From the NCBI GenBank assembly GCA_035221665.1, contig CM069139.1:61566001-61630000 (forward strand): 64,000 nucleotides of DNA, in the 5' to 3' direction. This DNA is from Okamejei kenojei (Eukaryota). Below the pieces are notes generated by a model. The model searched no databases. It was not told the DNA's origin and saw nothing but the letters and a program-made list of their open reading frames with translations. Shown one piece after another: positions 33,262 through 62,902 of the stretch. Within the stretch, counting starts at the first letter, position 1; the number at the start of each line of letters is the position of its first letter. Made by a program: the position numbers and the translations under genes.

Positions 33262-33421
33262 CGTCTTCAAATAGATAATACCACTGTGGTCGCGTATTTA
33301 AACCATATGGGTGGTATCAAGTCAATATCTTGTGATGAATTAGCAAATTTAATTTGGCTCTGGTGTATTGAAATAAATATTTGGATATCAGCTACGTACC
33401 TTCCGGGTAAAGCTCAATACA

Positions 33422-33877
33422 GTGGCGGACACCAGGTCACGAGTATTTAATGACAACATCGAGTGGATGTTGAACCCCCAAATATTTGCTAAAATTATAG
33501 CCAAATATGGAACACCAGATATCAACCTCTTTGCGTCCAGGTTGAACCATCAGATACCAACATATGTCTTTTGGGAACCAGATCCTGGGGCAATGGCGAT
33601 GGACGCATTCTCGCTACATTGGGGGAAATGGTTTTTCTATGCATTTCCCCCATTCTGCCTCATCAGTTGGGTATTGCAGAAAATTCAACTAGATTCTGCA
33701 ACAGGTATACTGATAATACCTGACTGGCCCACACAATCATGGTACCCGGTGGTCCTCAACATGATAAAAGAAACATGGGCACAGGTTACCAAATGCCCGA
33801 ATTTGGTGACCAATCCCATAACAGGGGAAAATCATCCGTGCCATGGTCATCTGAACCTGTTGGCTTGCAGGTTCTGA
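33422..33877 (+). pseudogene. DIRS DAM-like methyltransferase domain (C-terminus of a broken pol ORF)
   Basis: EWML...INLFASRLN...DAFSLHW...YAFPPF...IIPDWPTQSWYP, typical of DIRS1 methyltransferase domains. Confidence 0.85.
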
Positions 33878-33915
33878 GGAGGCCACTACTGTAATTCGGG
33901 CTGTCATCAAGAACC

Positions 33916-34830
33916 ATGGACATCGTTACAGCATCGTGCAGAGAGTCCACAAGGAAACAGTACCTCACCCACATCAGGAAACGGGAGGCCTTCTGTAGTC
34001 GGACCAAGACCACCTACAACTCTGCTACGATCACCAATGTGCTGGAATTTCTCGCGGGCCTTCATTATGATGAGGGCCTCAGTTACAGTGCCATAAACAG
34101 TGCCAGGAGTGCGCTGTCATCCTATCTCAACATTGGAGTGGGATCTCACCAGCTGGTATCCAAACTAATGAGGGGTATATTCAATTCCAACCCTCTCCGA
34201 CCACGATATAATATTACCTGGGATTTTAGGGTGGTGTTGACCCTACTCAGGAGCCGTTCGCTTATGACGGGATTACCACTGGACAAACTCACCTTGAAAG
34301 TGGTGTTGTTAATGGCACTGACCACTGCACAACGGGTCCAGACTCTACAGAAACTAAAACTGGATAGAATGGTCTCGACTCCCAATAAAGTGACTTTCTT
34401 TATAGATGAGTTGCTTAAACACAGACCTGGGACTACAGGACGGAAATTGGAATTCCTAGCATATCCCGTTGATGTAAGACTCTGTATAGCCACCCATATC
34501 CGACATTATATTAATGTCACACACACCATCAGGAAAATGGAGACGAGTCTGTTTATCAGCCATAAGAACCCACATCACAGGGTGACGGTGCAGACTATCT
34601 CCAGGTGGCTCAGGGTGGTATTGGGTGCAGCAGGTATGGACACTAACATTTTTAAATCTCATTCCACCAGGGCTGCATCCACATCAGCGGCGAGAACCAT
34701 GGAGGTACCCATGGATCATGTCCTCGCAACAGCGGGCTGGGCCAGTGAAACTACATTTCAGCAGCTTTATAATAAGCCTGTGGCCGCTCCCGCAACGTTT
34801 GTGGAATCAGTTTTAAGTGCTGTTCCCTAA
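33916..34830 (+). CDS. DIRS tyrosine recombinase, open 304-aa frame
   Basis: Catalytic set R (TAQRV), HxxR (HSTR), W (AGW) and Y (LYNKP), preceded by an N-terminal core-binding domain. Confidence 0.9.
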   Translation: MDIVTASCRESTRKQYLTHIRKREAFCSRTKTTYNSATITNVLEFLAGLHYDEGLSYSAINSARSALSSYLNIGVGSHQLVSKLMRGIFNSNPLRPRYNITWDFRVVLTLLRSRSLMTGLPLDKLTLKVVLLMALTTAQRVQTLQKLKLDRMVSTPNKVTFFIDELLKHRPGTTGRKLEFLAYPVDVRLCIATHIRHYINVTHTIRKMETSLFISHKNPHHRVTVQTISRWLRVVLGAAGMDTNIFKSHSTRAASTSAARTMEVPMDHVLATAGWASETTFQQLYNKPVAAPATFVESVLSAVP

Positions 34831-35435
34831 ATGTTTATCCCCGAGTTAGGGGTTTATTGTTTGTATTAATAAATACGTTATTATTTTTCAGCTTGTTCAA
34901 GTCTGAAATACGTTAACTTACTTCCTCCATCAGTAATTAGGCAGTGTGAGCATGGACGTGGTCCAGGGCATGGAATCACAGAGCTTTGAAATCTTCACGA
35001 AGTCACTCACGTGACTCCGAAGTAAAATAGTAGGATTAAACGAGAACTTACCAGTTTGAAGTTTGATCCTTATTTTATGAGGCGTTACGATGAGGGATTT
35101 CGTGCCCTCCGCTCCCAACCCTCTATTATAAGGTCAACTGGTATATAGAGTCTCTTAAATCTTACTATCTTCAGTCATTGTTGTTATCTGTGATTTCACA
35201 CCGCTGCTTCCCTCATCGTAACTCCTCATAAAATAAGGATCAAACTTCAAACTGGTAAATTCTTGTTTAATCTTACTATTATATGTTAAGTTTTAATCTA
35301 CAATTTGAGAGGGATAAGGGTAAATCGGAGGTGTCAGTATTACAGTTGAACAAAGGGGACTATGGAGCCATGAGGGAGGAGCTGGCCAAAGTTGACTGGA
35401 AAGATACCCTAGCAGGGATGACAGTGGAACAACAA

Positions 35436-37858
35436 AGTGTTGTTTGGAGTTTGTAAAATGTGTGCAGGATAGTTTTTTGCAGCAGTACATAGAGGTATCG
35501 ACCAGAGAAGGGGCAGTGCTGGACCTCCTGTTAGGAAATGAGGCAGGTCAGGTGACGGAGGTATGCGTTGGTGAGCACTTCGGGACCAGTGATCACAATA
35601 CCATTAGTTTCAATATAATTATGGAGAGAGTCAGAACTGGACCTAGGGTGGAGATTTTTGATTGGAGAAAGGCTAACTTTGAGGGAATGCGTAAGGATTT
35701 TAAAGGAGTGAATTGGGACACTTTGTTTCATGGGAAGGATGTAGAAGAGAAATGGAGGACATTTAAAGGGGAAATTGTAAGAGTACAGAATCTTTATGTC
35801 CCTATTAGGTTGAAAGGAAATAGTAAAAATTGGAAAGAGCCATGGTTTTCAAGGGAAATTGGACACTTGTTTCGAAAAAAGAGAGATATCTACAATATTT
35901 ATAGGAGGCATGGAGTAAATGAGGTGCTAGAGGAGTATAAAGAATGTCAAAAGAATCTTAAGAAAGAAATTAGGAAGGCTAAAAGAAGATATGAGGTTGC
36001 TTTGGCAAGAAAGGTGAAAGTAAACCCAAAGGGTTTCTACAGCTATATTAATAGCAAAAGGATAACGAGGGATAAAATTGGACCATTAGAGAACCAGAAT
36101 GGACAGCTATCTGCAGAGCCAAAAGAGATGGGGGAGATATTGAACAATTTCTTTTCTTCGGTATTCACCAAGGAGAAGGATATTGAACTCTGTGAGTTAA
36201 GGGGAAAAAGTAGTAGCTATGGAAACTATGAGATTCAAAGAGGAGGAAGTACTGACACTTTTGAAAAATATAAAAGTGGATAAGTCTCCAGGTCCAGACA
36301 GGATATTCCCTAGGACATTGAGGGAAGTTAGTGTAGAAATAGCAGGAGCTATGACAGAAATATTTCAAATGTCATTAGAAACGGGAATAGTGCCGGAGGA
36401 TTGGCGTACTGCGCATGTTGTTCCATTGTTTAAAAAGGGTTCAAAGAATAAACCTAGCAATTATAGACCTATTAGTTTGACCTCAGTGGTGGGCAAATTA
36501 ATGGAAAGGATACTTAGAGATAATATATATAAGCATCTGGATAAACAGGGTCTGATCAGGAACAGTCAACATGGATTTGTGCCTGGAAGGTCATGTTTGA
36601 CAAACCTTCTTGAATTTTTTGAAGCGGTAACTAGGGAAATTGATGAGGGTAAAGCAGTGGATGTTGTCTATATGGATTTCAGTAAGGCCTTTGACAAGGT
36701 TCCCCATGGAAGGTTGGTTAAGAAGGTTCAATCTTTGGGTGTTAATGGCGGAGTAGCAAGATGGATTCAACAGTGGCTGAATGGGAGATGTCAGAGAGTA
36801 ATGGTGGATGGCTGTTTGTCAGGTTGGAAGCCAGTGACCAGTGGGGTGCCTCAGGGATCTGTGTTGGGTCCACTGTTGTTTGTCATGTACATCAATGATC
36901 TGGATGATGGGGTGGAAAATTGGATAAGTAAGTATGCAGATGATACTAAGATAGGTGGTGTTGTGGATAATGAAGTAGATTTTCAAAGTCTACAGAGAGA
37001 TTTGGGCCATTTGGAAAAGTGGGCTGAAAGATGGCAGATGGAGTTTAATGCTGATAAGTGTGAAGTGCTACATCTTGGCAGGACAAATCAAAATAGGACG
37101 TACATGGTAAATGGTAGGGAATTGAGGAATGCTGTGGAACAGAGGGATCTAGGAATAACTGTGCATAGTTCCCTGAAGGTGGAATCGCATGTAGATAGGG
37201 TGGTAAAGAAAGCCTTTGGTGTGCTGGCCTTTATAAATCAGAGCATTGAATATAGGAGTAGGGAAGTAATGTTAAAATTGTACAAGGCATTGGTAAGACC
37301 AATTCTGGAGTATGGTGTACAATTTTGGTCGCCTAGTTATAGGAAGGATGTCAACAAAATAGAGAGAGTACAGAGGAGATTTACTAGAATGTTGCCAGGG
37401 TTCCAGCAACTATGTTACAGAGAAAGGTTGAACAAGTTAGGTATTTATTCTTTGGAGCGCAGAAGGTTAAGGGGGGACTTGATTGAGGTCTTTAAAATGA
37501 TGAAAGGGATAGACAGAGTTGACGTGGATACGTTTTTCCCATTGAGGGTAGGGAAGATTCAAACAAGAGGACATGACATGAGAATTAAGGGACAGAGGTT
37601 TCGGGGTAACGTGAGGGGGAACTTCTTTACTCAGAGGGTGGTGGCTGTGTGGAATGAGCTTCCAGCAGAAGTGGTGGAGGCAGGATCGATTTTAACATTT
37701 AAGAGTAAAGTGGATAGGTATATGGACGTGAAGGGAATGGAGGGGTATGGTCTGAGTGCAGGTAGATGGGACTAGGGGAAAACAAATGGTCGGCACGGAC
37801 TGGAAGGGCCGAGAGGGCCTGTTTCCGTGCTGTAATTGTTATATGGTTATATGGTTAT
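35436..37858 (+). mobile_element. Young 5'-truncated CR1 LINE, ORF2 with a single frameshift
   Basis: ORFs 35444-36283 and 36219-37775 (518 aa, complete RT with YADD). Tail (ggttatat)n. TSD AACAA at 35431-35435 and 37859-37863. Confidence 0.95.
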
Positions 37859-52176: not shown

Positions 52177-52433
52177 CCCCCTTCCATTATAGATGAGACT
52201 CTTACTAAGGTCTCCTCGACATCCCGCAGCTGCGCTCTTGCTCCCCCTCCCCCCATTGGTAACAATGACAAAGTCCCCCCTGTCTTCACCCTCCACCCCA
52301 TCAGCCATCGCACACAACATATAATCCTCCAACATTTTCGCCACCTACAACGGGATCCCACCACTGGCCACATCTTCCCATCTCCACCCCTTTCTGCTTT
52401 CCGTGGAGACCATTTCCTCCACAACTCCCTGGA

Positions 52434-55400
52434 TGTAGAGTAGGTACACGGACACCTTAAGGTCTTCACTACTTTATTAATCATACATCATATAGCCCTA
52501 GCTGTACGTGGTCTGTCACGATCACCAGAGAGAGAGCTAGGGGCGTGTGGGTTACAATTATACTAACTGGTGGGGGGGGGGGTTGGTAGCATGGACATCG
52601 TCAATATCAATTAAAGGTGTATACACATCATCTACATCCTTCCTCTACCAAAACAAACAGTGAGTGACAGGGCGACCACGTCTCATGTGCTAGGGTAAAT
52701 GCAAACAGTAAAGCACGGGAAAACAGAATCACATGTAATCGCCGTAACAGACCGGCGGCCTGACCAGGCGACCAGACCGGATCCGCACCTCGCCATCACC
52801 TCCTTCCCCGACGGGAACAAGCGGGGACACCGGGGCATGGTGGGGGTTACGGACAGGAGAACCCCTGGGTGACGAAGGCATTGGGGGGGACGGCGAAGAG
52901 AAGGGTGAGGAAGCCGGAGAAAGCCGGACAGCAGCCGGGAGGAGGACAGGAGGAGGACGAGTGGGGGGGTTGGCCCCAGAGGAACGGGCAAAGCACTGGG
53001 CCGCGACAGTGGCAGCAGGGGGGCATACGGAGCCGCCGGGGGACGGAGAGGCTCGTTCACGAGCCGGAGATGCTGACGGGACCGGCGGTACACCCTTCCA
53101 TCGTGGTTGACAAGGTACGAACGAGGGGAACCGGCAGAACCGACGACCATGGCCAGCTTGGAACGGCCAGAAGTGGACCTCATACAGACGACCTGGCCGG
53201 GGAGAAGAGAGCGGAGGACGCGGCAGGACCTGTCGTGGGAACGCTTCTGTATACCGTGTTTTTGGGCAATGCGTTTCCGGACCAAGGCAGGTTTAAAGAC
53301 GGAGGGGGACAGAGACTGCTGAGACACCGGGACCGTGGGCCTCATGACTCAGGACATGAGTCGCTGAGCCGGGGAGCCCAGGGCATGGTCGCGGGAGATG
53401 TTGCGGAGGTTCAGCAGGGCCAGGTAGATGTCGGAGCGGGATAGGCGGCAACGTTCCAACAATCCTTTAGCACTGCGGACCGCGTGCTCGGCCAGTCTGT
53501 TGCTCTGCGGGTATTCCGGGCTGCTGGTGTAATGACGAAAGTTCCATCGTTCGGCAAAAGCGCGGAACTCGGCACTGGTGAACTGGCTGCCGTTGTCCGA
53601 CTGCAGGCTGGCCGGTGGGCACGAAGTTAACGTTTAGGACTATCAGATCAGACGTCTCGTATGGATGCCGGGTTGTGGATGAGAGAGGCGCCCGAGACAG
53701 CAACAAACATGTGAAAGTGAAGCGTTGTAGCTGGAGCATCATGCGCTGGAGCCGGGAGGAGGCCATGTGTATCGGCTTGTTGAGGATGGTGACCAGAGGT
53801 TTGTGGTCCGTCTCGACAGTGAAGCAGTTGCCCAGGATATAGTCTTTGAATTTGGAGCAGGCAAAGTCAACAGCCAGTAGCTCCTTCTCAATCTGGGCAT
53901 AGTGTTGTTCAGCGGTCGTCATTGTGCGGGATGCGTAGGACACAGGCAGTTGCACCCCGTCATGGATCTGCAGGCAGGCGGAGGAAGCGATACCTGCCGA
54001 AGGGCGTTCTGAAGGTCGTCAGGTGCGAGGATCGCTCGTCTAGAGGTATCTGCCAGAACGAACTCTTGGCATCAAGAACCGAGAACACGGTGGCAGGGCC
54101 GACCTGTGCAGCAACATCCTCCACCGTCCGCATGGGATAGTGCGGGCACCTGATGGCCAAGTTCAAGTCCTTAGGGTTGATGCAGATCCGTATTTCGCTC
54201 GTCTTTCTTCGCAGCGACAACCATAGTAGAAACCCACCGGGTGGAGTCCGTTACTGGCTTCAGAATGCCCGTGGCCACCATCTCGCGAAGAGCAGACTCG
54301 ACCTTGCCCCTCATGGCGAAGGACACACGGTGCGAGGCACAGATGACCGGCGTGATTGAGGGCAATCCTGTAGCTGCAGGGCAACTTCCCCAGCTTCAAG
54401 TCAAGCCGGTCAGGGAATTCGGCCAGCGGATTCAGGGGTGCCTCTACCAGGTGGACATCACTGTGGAAGCTCACCACTCCGAGGTCCTGGCAGGCCTCCA
54501 CGCCGAGCAGGGGGTCACATTTACCGTCCAGCAGGGAGGGGCCGAGAGGTCTTCAGCACCTTGCAGTGGAGAGTGGCCATCCCCACAGGAACAAGTACGC
54601 ACCCCCATAGGCATGCAAAACAGCACTGTCTGTGGAAACGGGCTCATTATTTCTTATCTTCCTGAACAGGCTTGTTAACATAACATTAGCAGCAGCCCCC
54701 GTATCCACCTTAGCAGAGAAGGCCATGCCATTCGGACGGTCGGGTCCGTTATCAGAGCAGCTGCACCTCGCAAGGAAAACACACTCAGCTCGCTTTGAGA
54801 CGAGTCAGGGTCAGACGGGGGGAGATCATCGTGCTGGAGATGGGAACCAGACGCTGTATCATCACGTGTCAGGTAGCGAGACGGTTTCTGCTGTGGCTGT
54901 GCAGGGTTCCCACGGGAACGGCATGCTGCCGAGAAGTGGTTGGGCTATTTGCAGAAATTACAGGTTTTCCCTAACGCTGGGCACACATTAGAACGGTGTG
55001 AAACAAAGTTACAATTTGGACTTCGTTGAGGCGGTCTGAAGCCCCGCAGTGGGCTTGCCCTCTGTCGCCGGGGAGCATTGTACAGCGAGACTGACTGCGT
55101 GGACCACCGGGTCAGGTACAGCGGAGGAGACAGCCTCAGCTAAACGAGAGGCATTGAATGTCAGATCAGGCTTACGCAGCAGCTCAGAGCGCAGCTTATC
55201 ATCCCGTAGACCAAAAACCAAGATGTCACGGGTCAAAGTATCAGGGGTCAGAACATGCAGGTCACATCGGCGAGCCAGTTGGCGCAGCGCGGCCACGAAA
55301 TTGTCAATAGATTTCCCAGGGTTTTGACGTCGGGAGAACAATTTGAAACGCTCTAAGATGTGGTTAGTGGGAAGGTCACACATCGCCGTAAATTTAACAA

Positions 55401-55942
55401 GCAGACATACCGGGTCCTGGACACTCTCACCCTGTCCACAGATGAATGACTCCGAACGCTCGAGCACTTCGGGACCAGCTACATTGAGCAGCAGGGAAGC
55501 CTTGACTGCGGGGGCCACAGCAGGGTGAGCGATTGTAACATAATGCTCAAAGTCATGTCGGAACACACACCAGCGATGAGTGATGTCTGCATCGAAGACT
55601 AGGATGTCAGGTTTACGACAGGCAGAAGCCATCACGGCACAGGGACTAAAAAAATAAAACGCGATAGACTAGAGACGCAGAAAGAAGCACTTCCGACTGG
55701 AGGCGTGGGTTCGTATCCCACTTCTGACACCATGTAGAGAAAGTACACGGACACCTTAAGGTCTTCACTACTTTATTAATCATACATCATATAGCCCTAG
55801 CTGTACGTGGTCTGTCACGATCACCAGAGAGGGAGCTAGGGGCATGTGGGTTACAATTATACTAACTGTTGGGGGGGGGGGGGGGGTGGTTAGCATGGAC
55901 ATCGTCACTATCAATTAAAGGTGTATACACATATCATCTACA
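52434..55942 (-). mobile_element. Gypsy/Ty3 LTR retrotransposon A (Mag-like), internally deleted
   Basis: TG..CA LTRs at 52434-52636 and 55733-55942, TSD CTGGA, tRNA-Leu PBS and PPT AGAGGAAGGA. Gag ORF 55009-55635, plus fragments of RT (VLDAKSSFWQ), RNase H (YAQIEKELLA) and integrase. Confidence 0.95.
55698..55732 (+). other. Extended PBS: 35-nt copy of the tRNA-Leu 3' half including CCA
   Basis: TGGAGGCGTGGGTTCGTATCCCACTTCTGACACCA abuts the 5' LTR. Vertebrate tRNA-Leu(CAA/CAG) ends TGGAGGCGTGGGTTCGAATCCCACTTCTGACACCA as I recall it. Confidence 0.88.
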
Positions 55943-56800
55943 CTGGACAACTCGTCCTTTCCCACCAAAACCACCCCCTCCCCAGGCACCTTCCCCTGCA
56001 ACGGCAAGAGATACAACACCTGTCCCTTTACCTTCCCCCTCGACTCCATCCAAGGACCCCAACAGTCTTCCAAGCTCTTCCAACCTCATCTACTGTATCT
56101 GCTGTTCCAGGTGTCAACTCCTGTATATCGGCGACACCAAGCGCAGGCTCGGCGATCATTTCGCTAAACATCTCTGCTCAGTCTTAACCTACCCGATCTC
56201 CCGGTTGCTCAACACTTTAACTCCCCCTCCCATTCCCAATCTGACCTTTCTGTCCTGGGCCTCCTCCATTGTCAGAGTGAGGCCCAGCACAAATTGGAGG
56301 AACAGCACCTCATATTTTGCTTGGGTAGCTTACACCCCAGCGGTATGAACATTGACTTCTCCCATTTCAAATAGCACTTGCTTTCCCTCTCTCTCCATCC
56401 CCTCCCCCTTCGCAGTTCTCCCACCAGTCTTACTGTCTCCGACTACATTCTATCTCTGTCCCATCGATTCCCCTGACACCAGTCTGAAGAAGGATCACGA
56501 CCCGAAACGTCACACATTCCTTCTCTCCAGAAATAATGCCTGAATTACTCCAGCATTTTGCGTCTACCAGTAGAAATAACATTTTCTTCAAATTCTGAAC
56601 CTGAATAAATAACACTAAAGTCAATATGAAAACATATATAGGGTTCAATTGCAAAATAGTTTTAAAAAAGCAACTGAAGCTGAAAACTGCAGGTTTTGGA
56701 AAAATGGGAGGCAATAGAGAAAGTAGGTACAAAATGATAAAGCAGAATTTGGGAGTGAACTGTGTAAACAAACTTGCAAAAAGTTTGTGAACATATTTAC

Positions 56801-58213: not shown

Positions 58214-61200
58214 TGTAAAGAGCTTAAACTCATACAGGTTGAAAAACAAGCATCTTTATTATTCAGGTCATGATCTTGCAAGCAGGTCATTACACGTTCA
58301 CACTGCTACAGTTACTGGCAGGCAGTGGGCGAGTCTTTACACTATGAATGTTATAGTTAGGCGGAGTTATAATTACTAGGCATTCTAATTGGCTAAGATG
58401 CAATAGCCAATCTACATCTCTTCTCGTATAAATGAAAAACGAATAAAGCATTACTACTGCAACAAGTAAATAAAATGTTAAATCGCCACATCTAATAATA
58501 ATGGGGTTAAACATAATCACTATATCTAACAGGTGGCTTGCTAACTAACCCACCCGGTCCTCGTACGGTATGGAACTGCCTCATCAACCTTTTCCTCCGT
58601 TCAGTGAGCCCGACGGTCTATGGGGGGATACCGTAGGGGAACCAATGGAAGACTGTCGCGGGGAAACCGGAGAACCGGATACAAAAGGTGGCATGGGGGC
58701 AGACCGACGCGGGGGGTGGATGGGACTGGCAGCGGCAGATGCTGGAACAGCAATCACTTTAAAAGTTGAGCGGTGGGGCATCAGGACCCTGGAGCGCCGG
58801 ACGCCGTTCCTTCACAGGAAGGAGGTGTTGACGGTTGCGTCTATAGATGGTGCCGCCGACATCGACCAGGTAGGAATGCGGTTCCTGTGAGGGTCCATAA
58901 ATGTACCCCAGTTTGGTATGTCCTTTGTCTGTTTGTAGTCGGAACTTAAATGAGAGGCTTAAGTGGTCTGCTGGTATTGTTATAACTCCGTTTCTGCGCG
59001 TCACGTTTAGACTGTACTCGTTCTTGAACTACAGTGGGGGTGACAACTTTAGGTTTTAGTTGATCTTGGGCGACGGACAACGGGGGTCGCGTTCGGCAGA
59101 ACATCAGGCGCTGGGCTGGAGAACTGAGAATGTTCTCATATCTCTAGCAATATTTCGCAGGTTCAACATCAGATTTAGCTAGGTAGGAGCGCTCCATGAG
59201 TTGATTGGCGCTCCGAACAGCACGCTCGGCAAGTCCATTGGACTGTGGATATTCTGGGCTGCTGGTCACATGTCGAAAGTTCCATCGCTTTGCAAAGTCT
59301 TTGAACTTTTGACTAGTGAATTGGGTCCCATTGTCAGTCTGGAGATAAGCTGGAATTCCATGTGCAGCAAAATGGATCCTGAGCTTTTGGATGACTATCT
59401 CTGAGGAGATGGTTGGCAGAAAGTAAATTTCAAACCAGTTAGAGTACGAGTCCACAAACACGAGATAGTGCTTCCCGTGCCAGTCAAGGATATCGGCAGC
59501 CACCAATGACCAGGGTAGAGGGGGAGCCGGTTGAGACAGCAGGAGTTGTTTTTGCTGGAGTGGTACCTGTCTGTTACAGATCGTGCATGATTCTGATTTC
59601 TCCCGAATGTACTTGGTCATTCTGGGCCAATAAATCATTTATTTTGCAAGCTGTAAGGTAGCCTCCATGCCTGGATGACCACCGTGGATGACCGTCTTGT
59701 GACCCTTGACAATCCTGTACTCCATCCTGTAGTACTAGTTCGTCACGCACCAGGAAGTATGGTCGTAATTCAGCGGGAAGTGCTAGATTGTTTGTTTGGC
59801 CACCCACCTTTGATGATGGAAGTCAGCAGTTGGGAGGTTTTGCCTGCGGTGTATTCAGCGAGGCGGCGCAAGTGGTTGGTGGGAACAAATGAGACTTTCA
59901 GAATGGAGAATTTGTCCTGTTCAAATGGGTGTTGTTCGCTGGTGGTGCGTTGAGCTCTAGTTAGAGGGTTTGCGATGTGCATGTCTTTACCTTTTTTGTA
60001 GACAATGCGAAAATCGAACTGTTGTAGCTGCATCATCATACGTTGGAGCCTGGCTGGGGCAGCATGAATCAGTTTCCTCAGGGTGGTGACGTGGTTAATG
60101 ATCAGTCTCAACTGTGAAGGTTTTGCCAAAAAAGAATGTCTCTGAATTTGGAACAGCCAAAAACCACGGCAAGCAGTTCTTTCTCTATATATGCGTACCG
60201 TTGTTCAGTATCAGTTAGGGTGCGCGATGCGTAGGGCACGTAGGTCGCCGTTGAAAGAAGTTTGCAGACATGCAGCGCCTGTTCCGTACTGGGATGCATC
60301 GCAGGTGAGTGTGACAGGCAGATTGATGTTGAAATATGCCAGGGTTGGTGCACTGGCGAGCTGTAATTTTAAAGTCGCAAAGAATCGATGTGATGGGTAC
60401 CAGGGCCAGGTGTTGTCTTTGTGGGTCAATTGACATCGTGGGGCTGACAATTCACTGAGATTGGGGATGAATTTACCCAAGTAATTGACCATACCCAAAA
60501 ATCGTTGAAGGCTGGTGACGTCGGTTGGTACTGGCAGCTCGTTAATTGCTGGAGTCTTCAATGGGTCAGGTTTTAACCCGTTGCTGGTGAATACGTGACC
60601 GACGTAGGTGACTTCTGGAACTCTGAACTTGCATTTCAGAGGGTTGAGTTTTAGATTAATATCTCTGGCACGGTTCAACATCCTTCGTAGGTTGGCATCG
60701 TGTTCGGTTTCGTATCTGCCGTTTACGAGGATATCGTCAACAATGATGGCACAAGGAAATTCGGCGAACAGCTGTTCCATTGTGCGCTGGAAGACTTCGC
60801 TGTCAGAGTTGATACCAAAAGGCATTCTTAGAAATCGGTAGCGGCCGAATGGGGTGGAGAAAGTTGTGAGAGCGGATGACGCAGGATCTAACAGGGTTTG
60901 CCAAAAGGAGTTCTTAGCATCTAAAACTGAGACGATAGTTGTGTTACCAATCTTTGCCGCTACATCTTCAATGGTTCTCATCGGGTAGTGTTGGCGTTTG
61001 ATTGCCGTGTTCAAATCTTTGGGATTGATGCAGATGCGAAATTCCTTCTTGACTTTCTTGGTGGTGATGACTATGTTGGAGACCCAATCGAAGGGTTCGC
61101 TGACCTCGGCAATGATTCCGATAGAGACCATTTATGACTCCGATAGAGACGTTTTAGTTCATCGTGTACTTTCTCTCGCATGCCGTGGGGGACGCGGTGA

Positions 61201-62902
61201 GGTGCACGAATAATCGGGGTGACTGTGTGGTCAACAGAGATTTTGTATATTGTTGGTAGCTTGCCGGGTTTGTCGTCAAACAAGTCCTTGTAGTTGGATA
61301 GCATATGTTGTGCTGGTCCTTCCGTCAAACAGAGTTTGTGGACAGCACGCCCAAAATAAACCAGACCCAAGTCATGGCAGGCATTGATGCCAAGCAGGGT
61401 TTCCGAGCTTGGTTGGACAATGTAAAAAAGTAAGTTCTTTGTCTGCTCATTGATGATCAGCTTTACCCAACGGAAGAAGAATTTCCCCTCCGTAAGCATG
61501 TAAGGTGGAGGAGTCTTTTTTCATGAGCTCAGTGGTTCTTATCTTGTTGAACGCTTTGAGTGACATGACGTTTACCCTGGCGCCGGTCATGACTTTGACG
61601 ATCAGAGGTTTGTTACTGATTATCATGGTCACCGCAGGATCAGTTACTACGTTTGAGGTTCGCAGGTTTAGGGAAAGTACGGTCTGAGCATCTGAGTTAT
61701 CAGAGTTGACTCAGCGTCTGAGTTATCAGAGTTGTTCCCGTGGGAAGATTTGTCCTGTCCATGGGAATCAGAATCGGACGCGTCTTGTTGAATCAGGTGC
61801 AGCTTCGTCCTTGAAGCTGTACTCCTACTAGATCGACAACAATTAGCAAAGTGGTTGAGTTTCTTGCACTTATGACATACTTTCCCATGGGCTACACAAA
61901 ACTGGCGCCCCCCTCCGGTGGAAATAGTTACAGCTAGAGCAACTCGTGGCAGGCACTTTCTGATCTTTGCAAGATGCATTGAGAAATCTTTGTGGAGAAT
62001 AGCTAGCCAGATTCACTTTAAGTTGTTGATTAAGGTTACCACTATCAAAGTCAGCAAGTGGTGTTACAGTCTCAGCCATTCGACAAGCATGAATTGCTTG
62101 CTCCAGAGTCAGATCAGCATTCCGCAGCAATTCGGCTCATAATTCGGCGGTGGCTCATTCCTCCCACAATTTTATCACGTACTAGCTTATTTGTCAACTC
62201 AACAAATCTGCAATGAGAGCTGATATGTCTCAGATCACTGATGAATCGTTCCACAGGCTCATTAGCCTGTATCATACGGCAAAGAATCTCGTTCTCTCGA
62301 GGATGCTGTTAAATGGCAGATCACATGGTTCTCTGAACTTCCTCAGCAGAACCATAGAGTTGTCAATACTTTCAGCCGGCACCACTACCAGACCATTCCC
62401 GTCTAGTTGAGCTGGTGCGAAATCAAAAGAGTCAGCGCGGATCATAGCCTCTGGACCCGCTATATTCAGCAACAACGAAGCTTTCAAATTATCGGGATCA
62501 TTTTGGTGAATGATGCGGATATAATGAGAGTAGTCCTTCTCAAACATTTGCCAACGCTCAGCAATATCGGAATGAAACACGAGCGGGCTGGGTTTCCGAC
62601 AAGAGTTAGCCATGTCGTCAAAATCACACAAATAAAAACTGATAAACAAAATAAATCGCGATAGATAGACGCGGGCTAGACACGATTTTCTGACACCATG
62701 TAAAGAGCTCAAACTCACACAGGTTGAAACACAAGCATCTTTATTATTCAGGTCATAATCTTGCAAGCAGGTCATTACACGTTCACGCTGCTACAGTTAC
62801 TGGCAGGCAGTGGGCGAGTCTTTACACTATGAATGTTATAGTTAGGCGGAGTTATAATTACTAGGCATTCTAAATTGGCTAACATGCAATAGCCAATCTA
62901 CA
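58214..62902 (-). mobile_element. Gypsy/Ty3 LTR retrotransposon B (Mag-like), near full length but frameshifted
   Basis: LTRs at 58214-58416 and 62699-62902 (I count 6 substitutions and 1 indel). TSD GAAAC/GAAGC, short PBS TGGTGTCAGAA, gag with a CHKCKKLNHFANCC knuckle, RT 60211-61131 (IVDD), RNase H, and integrase 59144-59638. Confidence 0.96.

Follow-up and report, generated by a model that had tools for sequence, protein, structure and literature searches.

Over-extension into the primer tRNA has been treated in older retrovirus and Ty1 work. In two further papers, the plus-strand strong-stop products P2-P5 are set by m1A58, m5U54, Psi55, and the modified base 37, and over-extended products are stated to be unable to complete transfer or to integrate (PMC8599865, PMC13191261). 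Hardy et al. describe 44 defective HIV-1 proviruses with tRNA(Lys3) inserts of 7-54 nt from delayed second-strand transfer; 5 of the 44 are changed at position 58, which is treated as mutation, and their GenBank query contained the unchanged base (PMC12657518). Arrest and misincorporation by RT at m1A are established (PMC4787781). In humans, every Leu isodecoder is listed with m1A58, m1G37, and m2,2G26, and Leu-CAG with m3C47d as well (PMC5066629). The zebrafish data give m1A58 for almost every cluster and place variable-loop m3C in Leu-CAG and Ser (PMC11417395). Steamer, one of the C-clade Ty3-Gypsy elements, has a 12-nt tRNA-Leu primer site, LTRs near 200 bp, and a length of about 4.5 kb (PMC8905726).

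Here we describe a Gypsy copy of a skate genome in which the primer site is continued by an overlong copy of the primer tRNA. As in the strong-stop studies, the main stop of its family lies at 18 nt and minor longer products end before position 37; contrary to them, the over-extended DNA was integrated with normal target duplications and inherited (PMC8599865, PMC13191261). With the HIV-1 proviruses it shares a primer tRNA copied past position 58, an insert that marks the junction, usually with a deletion, and a change in the same direction (5/44 in HIV-1; PMC12657518).

RESULTS

A Gypsy copy carries 41 nt of its primer tRNA

The window (the whole stretch of DNA analyzed, 64 kb, G000:C9:61566001-61630000) lies within a 2.76-Gb genome and has repeats that would fit a cartilaginous fish. 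On its minus strand it contains element A, a Gypsy copy of 3509 bp with a CTGGA target-site duplication. Comparison with the genome's own tRNA-Leu(CAA) gene (L014/L171) identified 55692-55732 as a 41-nt match to the spliced, CCA-added tRNA. The features are as follows.

55692-55732, minus strand: tRNA-Leu(CAA) copy, complement of mature tRNA positions 76→46 including CCA, adjoining the 5' LTR
55714, plus strand: tRNA position 58, T in place of A; dA on the sense strand of the element, facing the presumed m1A58
55688-55693, minus strand: landing junction, where the over-extended end rejoins the primer site of element A itself by 2-nt microhomology
55733-55942, minus strand: 5' LTR of element A (TG...CA), paired
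52434-52636, minus strand: 3' LTR of element A, paired
52429-52433, no strand: left copy of the target-site duplication CTGGA, 5 bp
55943-55947, no strand: right copy of the target-site duplication CTGGA, 5 bp
52637-52649, minus strand: polypurine tract (PPT) before the 3' LTR, read from sequence
55009-55668, minus strand: stop-to-stop reading frame of 219 aa in the place of gag, without Pfam match
53467-54018, minus strand: frame of element A with an RT RNase H-like domain
58214-62902, minus strand: element B, a second tRNA-Leu-primed Gypsy family, with frames for RT, RNase H, and integrase
62688-62698, minus strand: primer site of element B, 11 nt, tRNA-Leu; LTRs at about 62699-62902 and 58214-58416

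The sequence-only reading had put the tRNA identity at 35 nt, with 55692 as a possible longer limit. The longer limit proved right and the 35 nt too short, while the sole mismatch at position 58 (55714, A→T) was borne out by the match to the gene. The first 14 nt of the copy are the native primer-binding site (PBS) of the family, and the remainder is read-through. No tRNA gene was detected by Rfam or ARAGORN at 55692-55732 or anywhere in the window.

Compared with native sisters, the landing of element A amounts to a net insertion of 31 nt, and its junction occurs once genome-wide. The native form was seen as a "skips 31" joint in contigs of the public runs X1 and X4. A contig of X1 (record 5), an independent public run that may be the assembly's own sample, covers 55642-55727 across the junction with one other letter, its place unlisted. 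Contigs of public runs aligned to the window show no other letter at 55714, an uninformative result because repeat contigs break at such bubbles. Compared with the sister copy L155, element A has deletions of ~540 bp in RT and ~550 bp further 3'. The window copy has no internal deletion running from the junction like those of the HIV-1 cases; it lands again on its own PBS. If the window is considered by itself, the mismatch carries little weight, being 1 position of 41 in an element whose 5' and 3' LTRs differ by 8 substitutions in 203 aligned sites; the genome-wide counts given below make it strong.

Element A has the TG...CA LTRs, target-site duplication, PBS, and PPT of a Ty3/Gypsy LTR retrotransposon. 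RT-RNase H precedes integrase; RNase H is present in the window copy, and the order was taken from the frames of sister copy L152 and Gypsy-type hits. The nearest named RT matches are a skate protein (75%) and teleost K02A2.6-like proteins (about 70%). As to a single gag-pol ORF, the copies examined are frameshifted, and many homologs have the form of one protein of about 1350 aa. The first 12 nt of the native site of the family are identical to the published Steamer site; the likeness to Steamer consists of this 12-nt site, the LTR length, and the ~4.5 kb, and is a comparison of features (PMC8905726).

The leader of element B resembles that of element A. The 11-nt match of element B, which the sequence-only reading had offered as an internal control, is present, but element B belongs to another family; the appropriate comparison is with element A's native sisters (22/91, see below). 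Elsewhere in the window, frames with tyrosine-recombinase (PF00589) and RT (PF00078) at 33377-37775 on the plus strand mark a DIRS-like retrotransposon.

The tRNA-Leu genes found carry A58

A 5'-half pattern yielded 15 loci, comprising 8 complete Leu(CAA) genes, one interrupted gene, and 6 Leu(CAG) genes; a further CAA gene was found separately. All 15 tRNA-Leu genes having a 3' half carry A58, and none with T58 was found, in line with the expectation of the sequence-only reading. A genome search for non-A58 sequences without CCA, which also misses genes with C in the second trailer place, returned 4 matches, all of them 3' fragments lacking a 5' half and none a gene. Exact-match patterns such as those used here favor young copies and may miss divergent or unassembled tRNA genes. 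Each complete Leu(CAA) gene found (9 in all) has an intron behind position 37. At G000:C13:63172614-63196636 (L173-L180), eight tRNA-Leu(CAA) genes with introns lie together; two of them have G57→A, and one is split by a repeat insertion.

Position 58 is changed in most of the read-through copies examined

Read-through junctions were collected with a genome pattern that left positions 53-62 free and required CCA, and at least 481 were obtained. This N-run pattern replaced an earlier 2-mismatch search (729 total), which gave perfect matches only; A58-only loci of the earlier search were used only where they were also in the N-run list. The first 100 of the 481 matches (C1-C3 plus two on C4) were fetched and aligned. 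Position 58 was A in 36, T in 45, G in 11, and C in 8 of them, so that 64/100 were changed, whereas A59 was changed in 0/100 (Fisher p 2e-26). The CpG positions C56 and G57 were changed in 6/100 and 11/100 and the other free, non-CpG positions in 9/700. Loop positions 54, 55, 59, and 60 were almost invariant. Mixed T, G, and C at position 58 across sister copies is what the sequence-only reading had predicted for recurrent misincorporation.

The 100 junctions fall into 26 LTR groups and 94 landing clusters, and one copy per landing cluster still gives T41/A35/G11/C7 at position 58. Ten of the 100 share a landing site with another copy (4 clusters), indicating that some inheritance or duplication occurs. 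Three LTR families were listed in full, with A/T/G/C at position 58, counted by eye, of 10/19/5/9 (43 copies), 16/19/3/1 (39 copies, the family of the window), and 32/50/3/11 (96 copies). Their base-58 spectra did not differ significantly (chi-square p 0.06). In LTR trees, made from short alignments and with few supported branches, base 58 was not clustered in the largest group (35 rows; 16 changes versus 14.2 shuffled) or in the window's family (31 rows; 11 changes versus 12.0 shuffled). A 17-row subsample of the latter did show clustering (4 changes versus 6.8 shuffled, 2 of 200), which vanished with 31 rows.

The template was mature tRNA, and two further positions are marked

A pattern across the exon junction gave 10 matches. 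All 10 are LTR-linked and end in CCA beside an LTR-like end. Since the genes have introns, these CCA-ended copies across the spliced exon junction show that the template was mature tRNA. In 7/10 of them G37 is replaced by T, and 7/10 end at positions 27-28, beside G26. U38 is reached by 20 of the 100 aligned copies, and all 20 end within 6 nt of it.

The second marked place is a C in the variable loop, which precedes the last U of the loop and is 47d by consecutive count. Of 61 copies that reach well beyond it, 45 are changed there, 37 to T, 6 to A, and 2 to G. The change is seen with either isodecoder (variable-loop G or A), and 9/9 genes have C at that place. Changes at position 58 and at this C are independent (Fisher p 0.54). 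A pile-up of ends before the variable-loop C (13/100 at 35 nt) was not counted, because the scoring merges two positions there. Changes are thus concentrated at positions 58 and 37 and at one C of the variable loop, with no other such site in the vicinity.

This pattern resembles the DM-tRNA-seq and mim-tRNAseq signals, with arrest, mixed misincorporation at m1A58, m1G37, and m3C47d, and a stop at m2,2G26 (PMC4787781, PMC5066629, PMC11417395). It differs in that the RT of a retrotransposon made it in vivo and the genome has preserved it. At position 58, the position-specific mixed-base change is combined with arrest one base before it, as in the RT signature of m1A58 (39/91 family copies end at 18 nt). 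From known tRNA biology, m1A58, m1G37, and m2,2G26 would be assigned to this species as well. The variable-loop signal lies on Leu(CAA), whereas the excerpts give variable-loop m3C for Leu-CAG and Ser only (PMC5066629, PMC11417395); m3C in the Leu(CAA) variable loop is put forward as a prediction.

Leader classes and landing sites in the family of element A

An LTR-PBS junction pattern had 217 genome matches, and 91 copies were examined, namely 90 loci (L061-L150) and the window. Classified by inspection, 22/91 have a native leader with a 10-14-nt site. In 39/91, exactly 18 nt of tRNA are followed by a jump, 18/91 have read-through of 23-49 nt (10 with A58 and 8 with T58, the window copy counted), and 12/91 are intermediate. 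From these classes the native primer site is 13-14 nt long. The sequence-only reading had assumed a PBS capped at 18 nt; this does not hold for the family, in which the extra tRNA is a per-copy strand-transfer accident and not a functional long PBS.

Almost all of the 18-nt copies (37/39) go on in antisense, with a stretch of the element's interior turned round. With few exceptions, the inverted stretches come from three places inside the element that have 5-6 nt in common with the strong-stop end. Six of the 18-nt copies, read at length, differ in what follows. Among the read-through copies of the family, 11/18 map back into the element and 7 are unmapped. Five sisters (L157, L158, L160, L162, and L167) land further inside, and the leader or more is lost as a deletion from the junction. 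Several sister copies have matching 5-bp target duplications and therefore integrated normally.

Two further kinds of arrangement were noted. L043/L044/L074 (G000:C2:8644904-8645022) and the metagenome locus L282 consist of tandem units of LTR end plus tRNA read-through, in which the over-extended end is back in the LTR and the tRNA is copied twice. L027, L218, L219, and L221 (and L046 and L138) belong to different LTR families but share one landing place, antisense in integrase. This recurrent hot spot has a few bases in common with the tRNA variable arm.

Read-through in other hosts

In metagenome contigs, tRNA-Leu read-through gave 23 matches at 13 distinct loci, 12 with A58 and 1 with T58. 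With loci that are not independent of host, the difference between the skate (64/100 changed at 58) and the metagenome (1/13) has p 1e-4. The 12/13 loci with A58 show that read-through does not always leave a change. Read-through is thus widespread in tRNA-Leu-primed elements, with an error rate that depends on host or enzyme. The metagenome loci (L279-L301) have animal hosts; many end at U38, one crosses the anticodon, and most are unchanged at 58. Contigs of four further public runs (organisms A, B, C, and E) contain many tRNA read-through pieces and loose ends.

DISCUSSION

We conclude, with a probability of roughly 0.86, that the 41-nt stretch was copied into DNA from mature primer tRNA-Leu(CAA) by plus-strand strong-stop synthesis past a methylated A58, with dA in place of dT, and is a by-product of faulty reverse transcription. 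Copy orientation, CCA, the splice junction, site-specific mixed changes, copy-specific junctions, and normal integration are all observed directly. As in delayed second-strand transfer, the complement of the primer tRNA prolongs the PBS past 18 nt on the sense strand, the template is mature, and the junctions are copy-specific. A template switch to the tRNA during minus-strand synthesis was considered and rejected, as it would give the opposite orientation. The proposal of the sequence-only reading, a fossil of RT reading through a modified primer tRNA, is supported by the mixed base 58 together with the A58-only genes; m1A itself we infer.

Plus-strand synthesis from the PPT would copy the attached primer up to m1A58, that is, 18 nt. 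With a primer site of 13-14 nt, shorter than the 18-nt strong stop, the plus strand would have an unpaired tail at second-strand transfer. The unpaired end would often pair elsewhere by microhomology, at 18 nt (39/91) or after read-through (18/91). RT presumably passes position 58 in a fifth of copies, often miscoding, and its later stop would mostly come by 37. Element A would have landed on its own primer site and integrated normally in the germline (5-bp duplication), with the plus-strand version becoming fixed. This mismatch between primer site and strong stop is the likely reason why most copies are rearranged (native leader in 22/91).

Three other readings have to be weighed. An ordinary mutation after insertion could have produced T58, since LTRs that differ at 8/203 sites make a stray change in 41 nt not rare, or one ancestral change could have been amplified in a subfamily with a long primer site, as the clustering in the 17-row subsample tree would allow. 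Neither accounts for 64/100 changes at 58 against 0/100 at 59, for 94 distinct landing sites and a unique junction in the window, or for mixed bases within three families. This reading is largely refuted and very improbable, and could stand for the single window copy alone. No more probable is faithful copying from tRNA-Leu genes whose base 58 is T, G, or C and which have died out or are absent from the assembly. The gene searches were exact-match searches, the assembly may be incomplete, and the copies do preserve two genuine isodecoders, which differ by G/A in the variable loop. Such copying would nevertheless need separate genes for three bases at 58 times three at the variable-loop C, plus T at 37; 0/15 of the genes found carry any such variant, and a change at 58 occurs irrespective of one at the loop C (Fisher p 0.54).

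The read-through may also be real and the error at 58 due to pausing at the strong stop or to T-loop structure, with an untemplated dA that is then extended, and not to the methyl group. At all three places (58, 37, and the variable-loop C) the base is most often changed to T (dA), and many 18-nt copies continue with A, although the A following an 18-nt end also has a template in the landing site. Of the changes at 58, 19/64 are to G or C, loop positions 54, 55, 59, and 60 are almost invariant, and the three hot positions coincide with places where Leu-type tRNAs are known to be methylated on the Watson-Crick face (PMC5066629). The pause itself is ascribed to m1A58 (PMC8599865). We regard pausing or structure as an unlikely cause, if a less remote one than mutation or missing genes, and retain miscoding at a methylated A58.

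The HIV-1 proviruses are 44 somatic cases, whereas the skate has at least 481 germline-fixed Gypsy copies (PMC12657518). Differing from the HIV-1 data, the skate copies have all three other bases at 58 (64/100 changed), signals at 37 and in the variable loop, proof of a spliced tRNA, and a native primer site shorter than 18 nt (PMC12657518). The comparison suggests that the HIV-1 changes at 58 (5/44) may be misincorporations too. In a literature search that covered subscription journals and older virology poorly, no report of modification footprints in genomic retrotransposon copies was found. Read-through with a change at 58 is thus a known accident of reverse transcription, and the germline-fixed, multi-site signature in hundreds of copies appears to be new.

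The overlong tRNA copy probably has no function of its own; its value would lie in being a record of primer modifications, with m1A58, likely m1G37, the predicted m3C in the variable loop, and a likely stop at m2,2G26. On balance, we favor the view that error-prone Gypsy families have recorded, in hundreds of insertions that can be dated, which bases of their primer tRNA are modified in the germline (m1A58, m1G37, m2,2G26, and a variable-loop m3C so far unreported for Leu-CAA). Assemblies would then contain the equivalent of a misincorporation tRNA-seq experiment performed by nature in vivo, and the modification status of the tRNA as well as the fidelity of RT could be deduced from DNA without any RNA. 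The copies show that over-extended DNA does integrate, and they are heritable in vivo evidence that RT both stops at and miscodes the presumably modified primer bases. The m3C in the Leu-CAA variable loop is a concrete prediction. If the view is true, modification and fidelity could be compared across hosts (64/100 versus 1/13) and traced in time by LTR age, and ordinary assemblies would become a source of tRNA-modification data for species and times without RNA.
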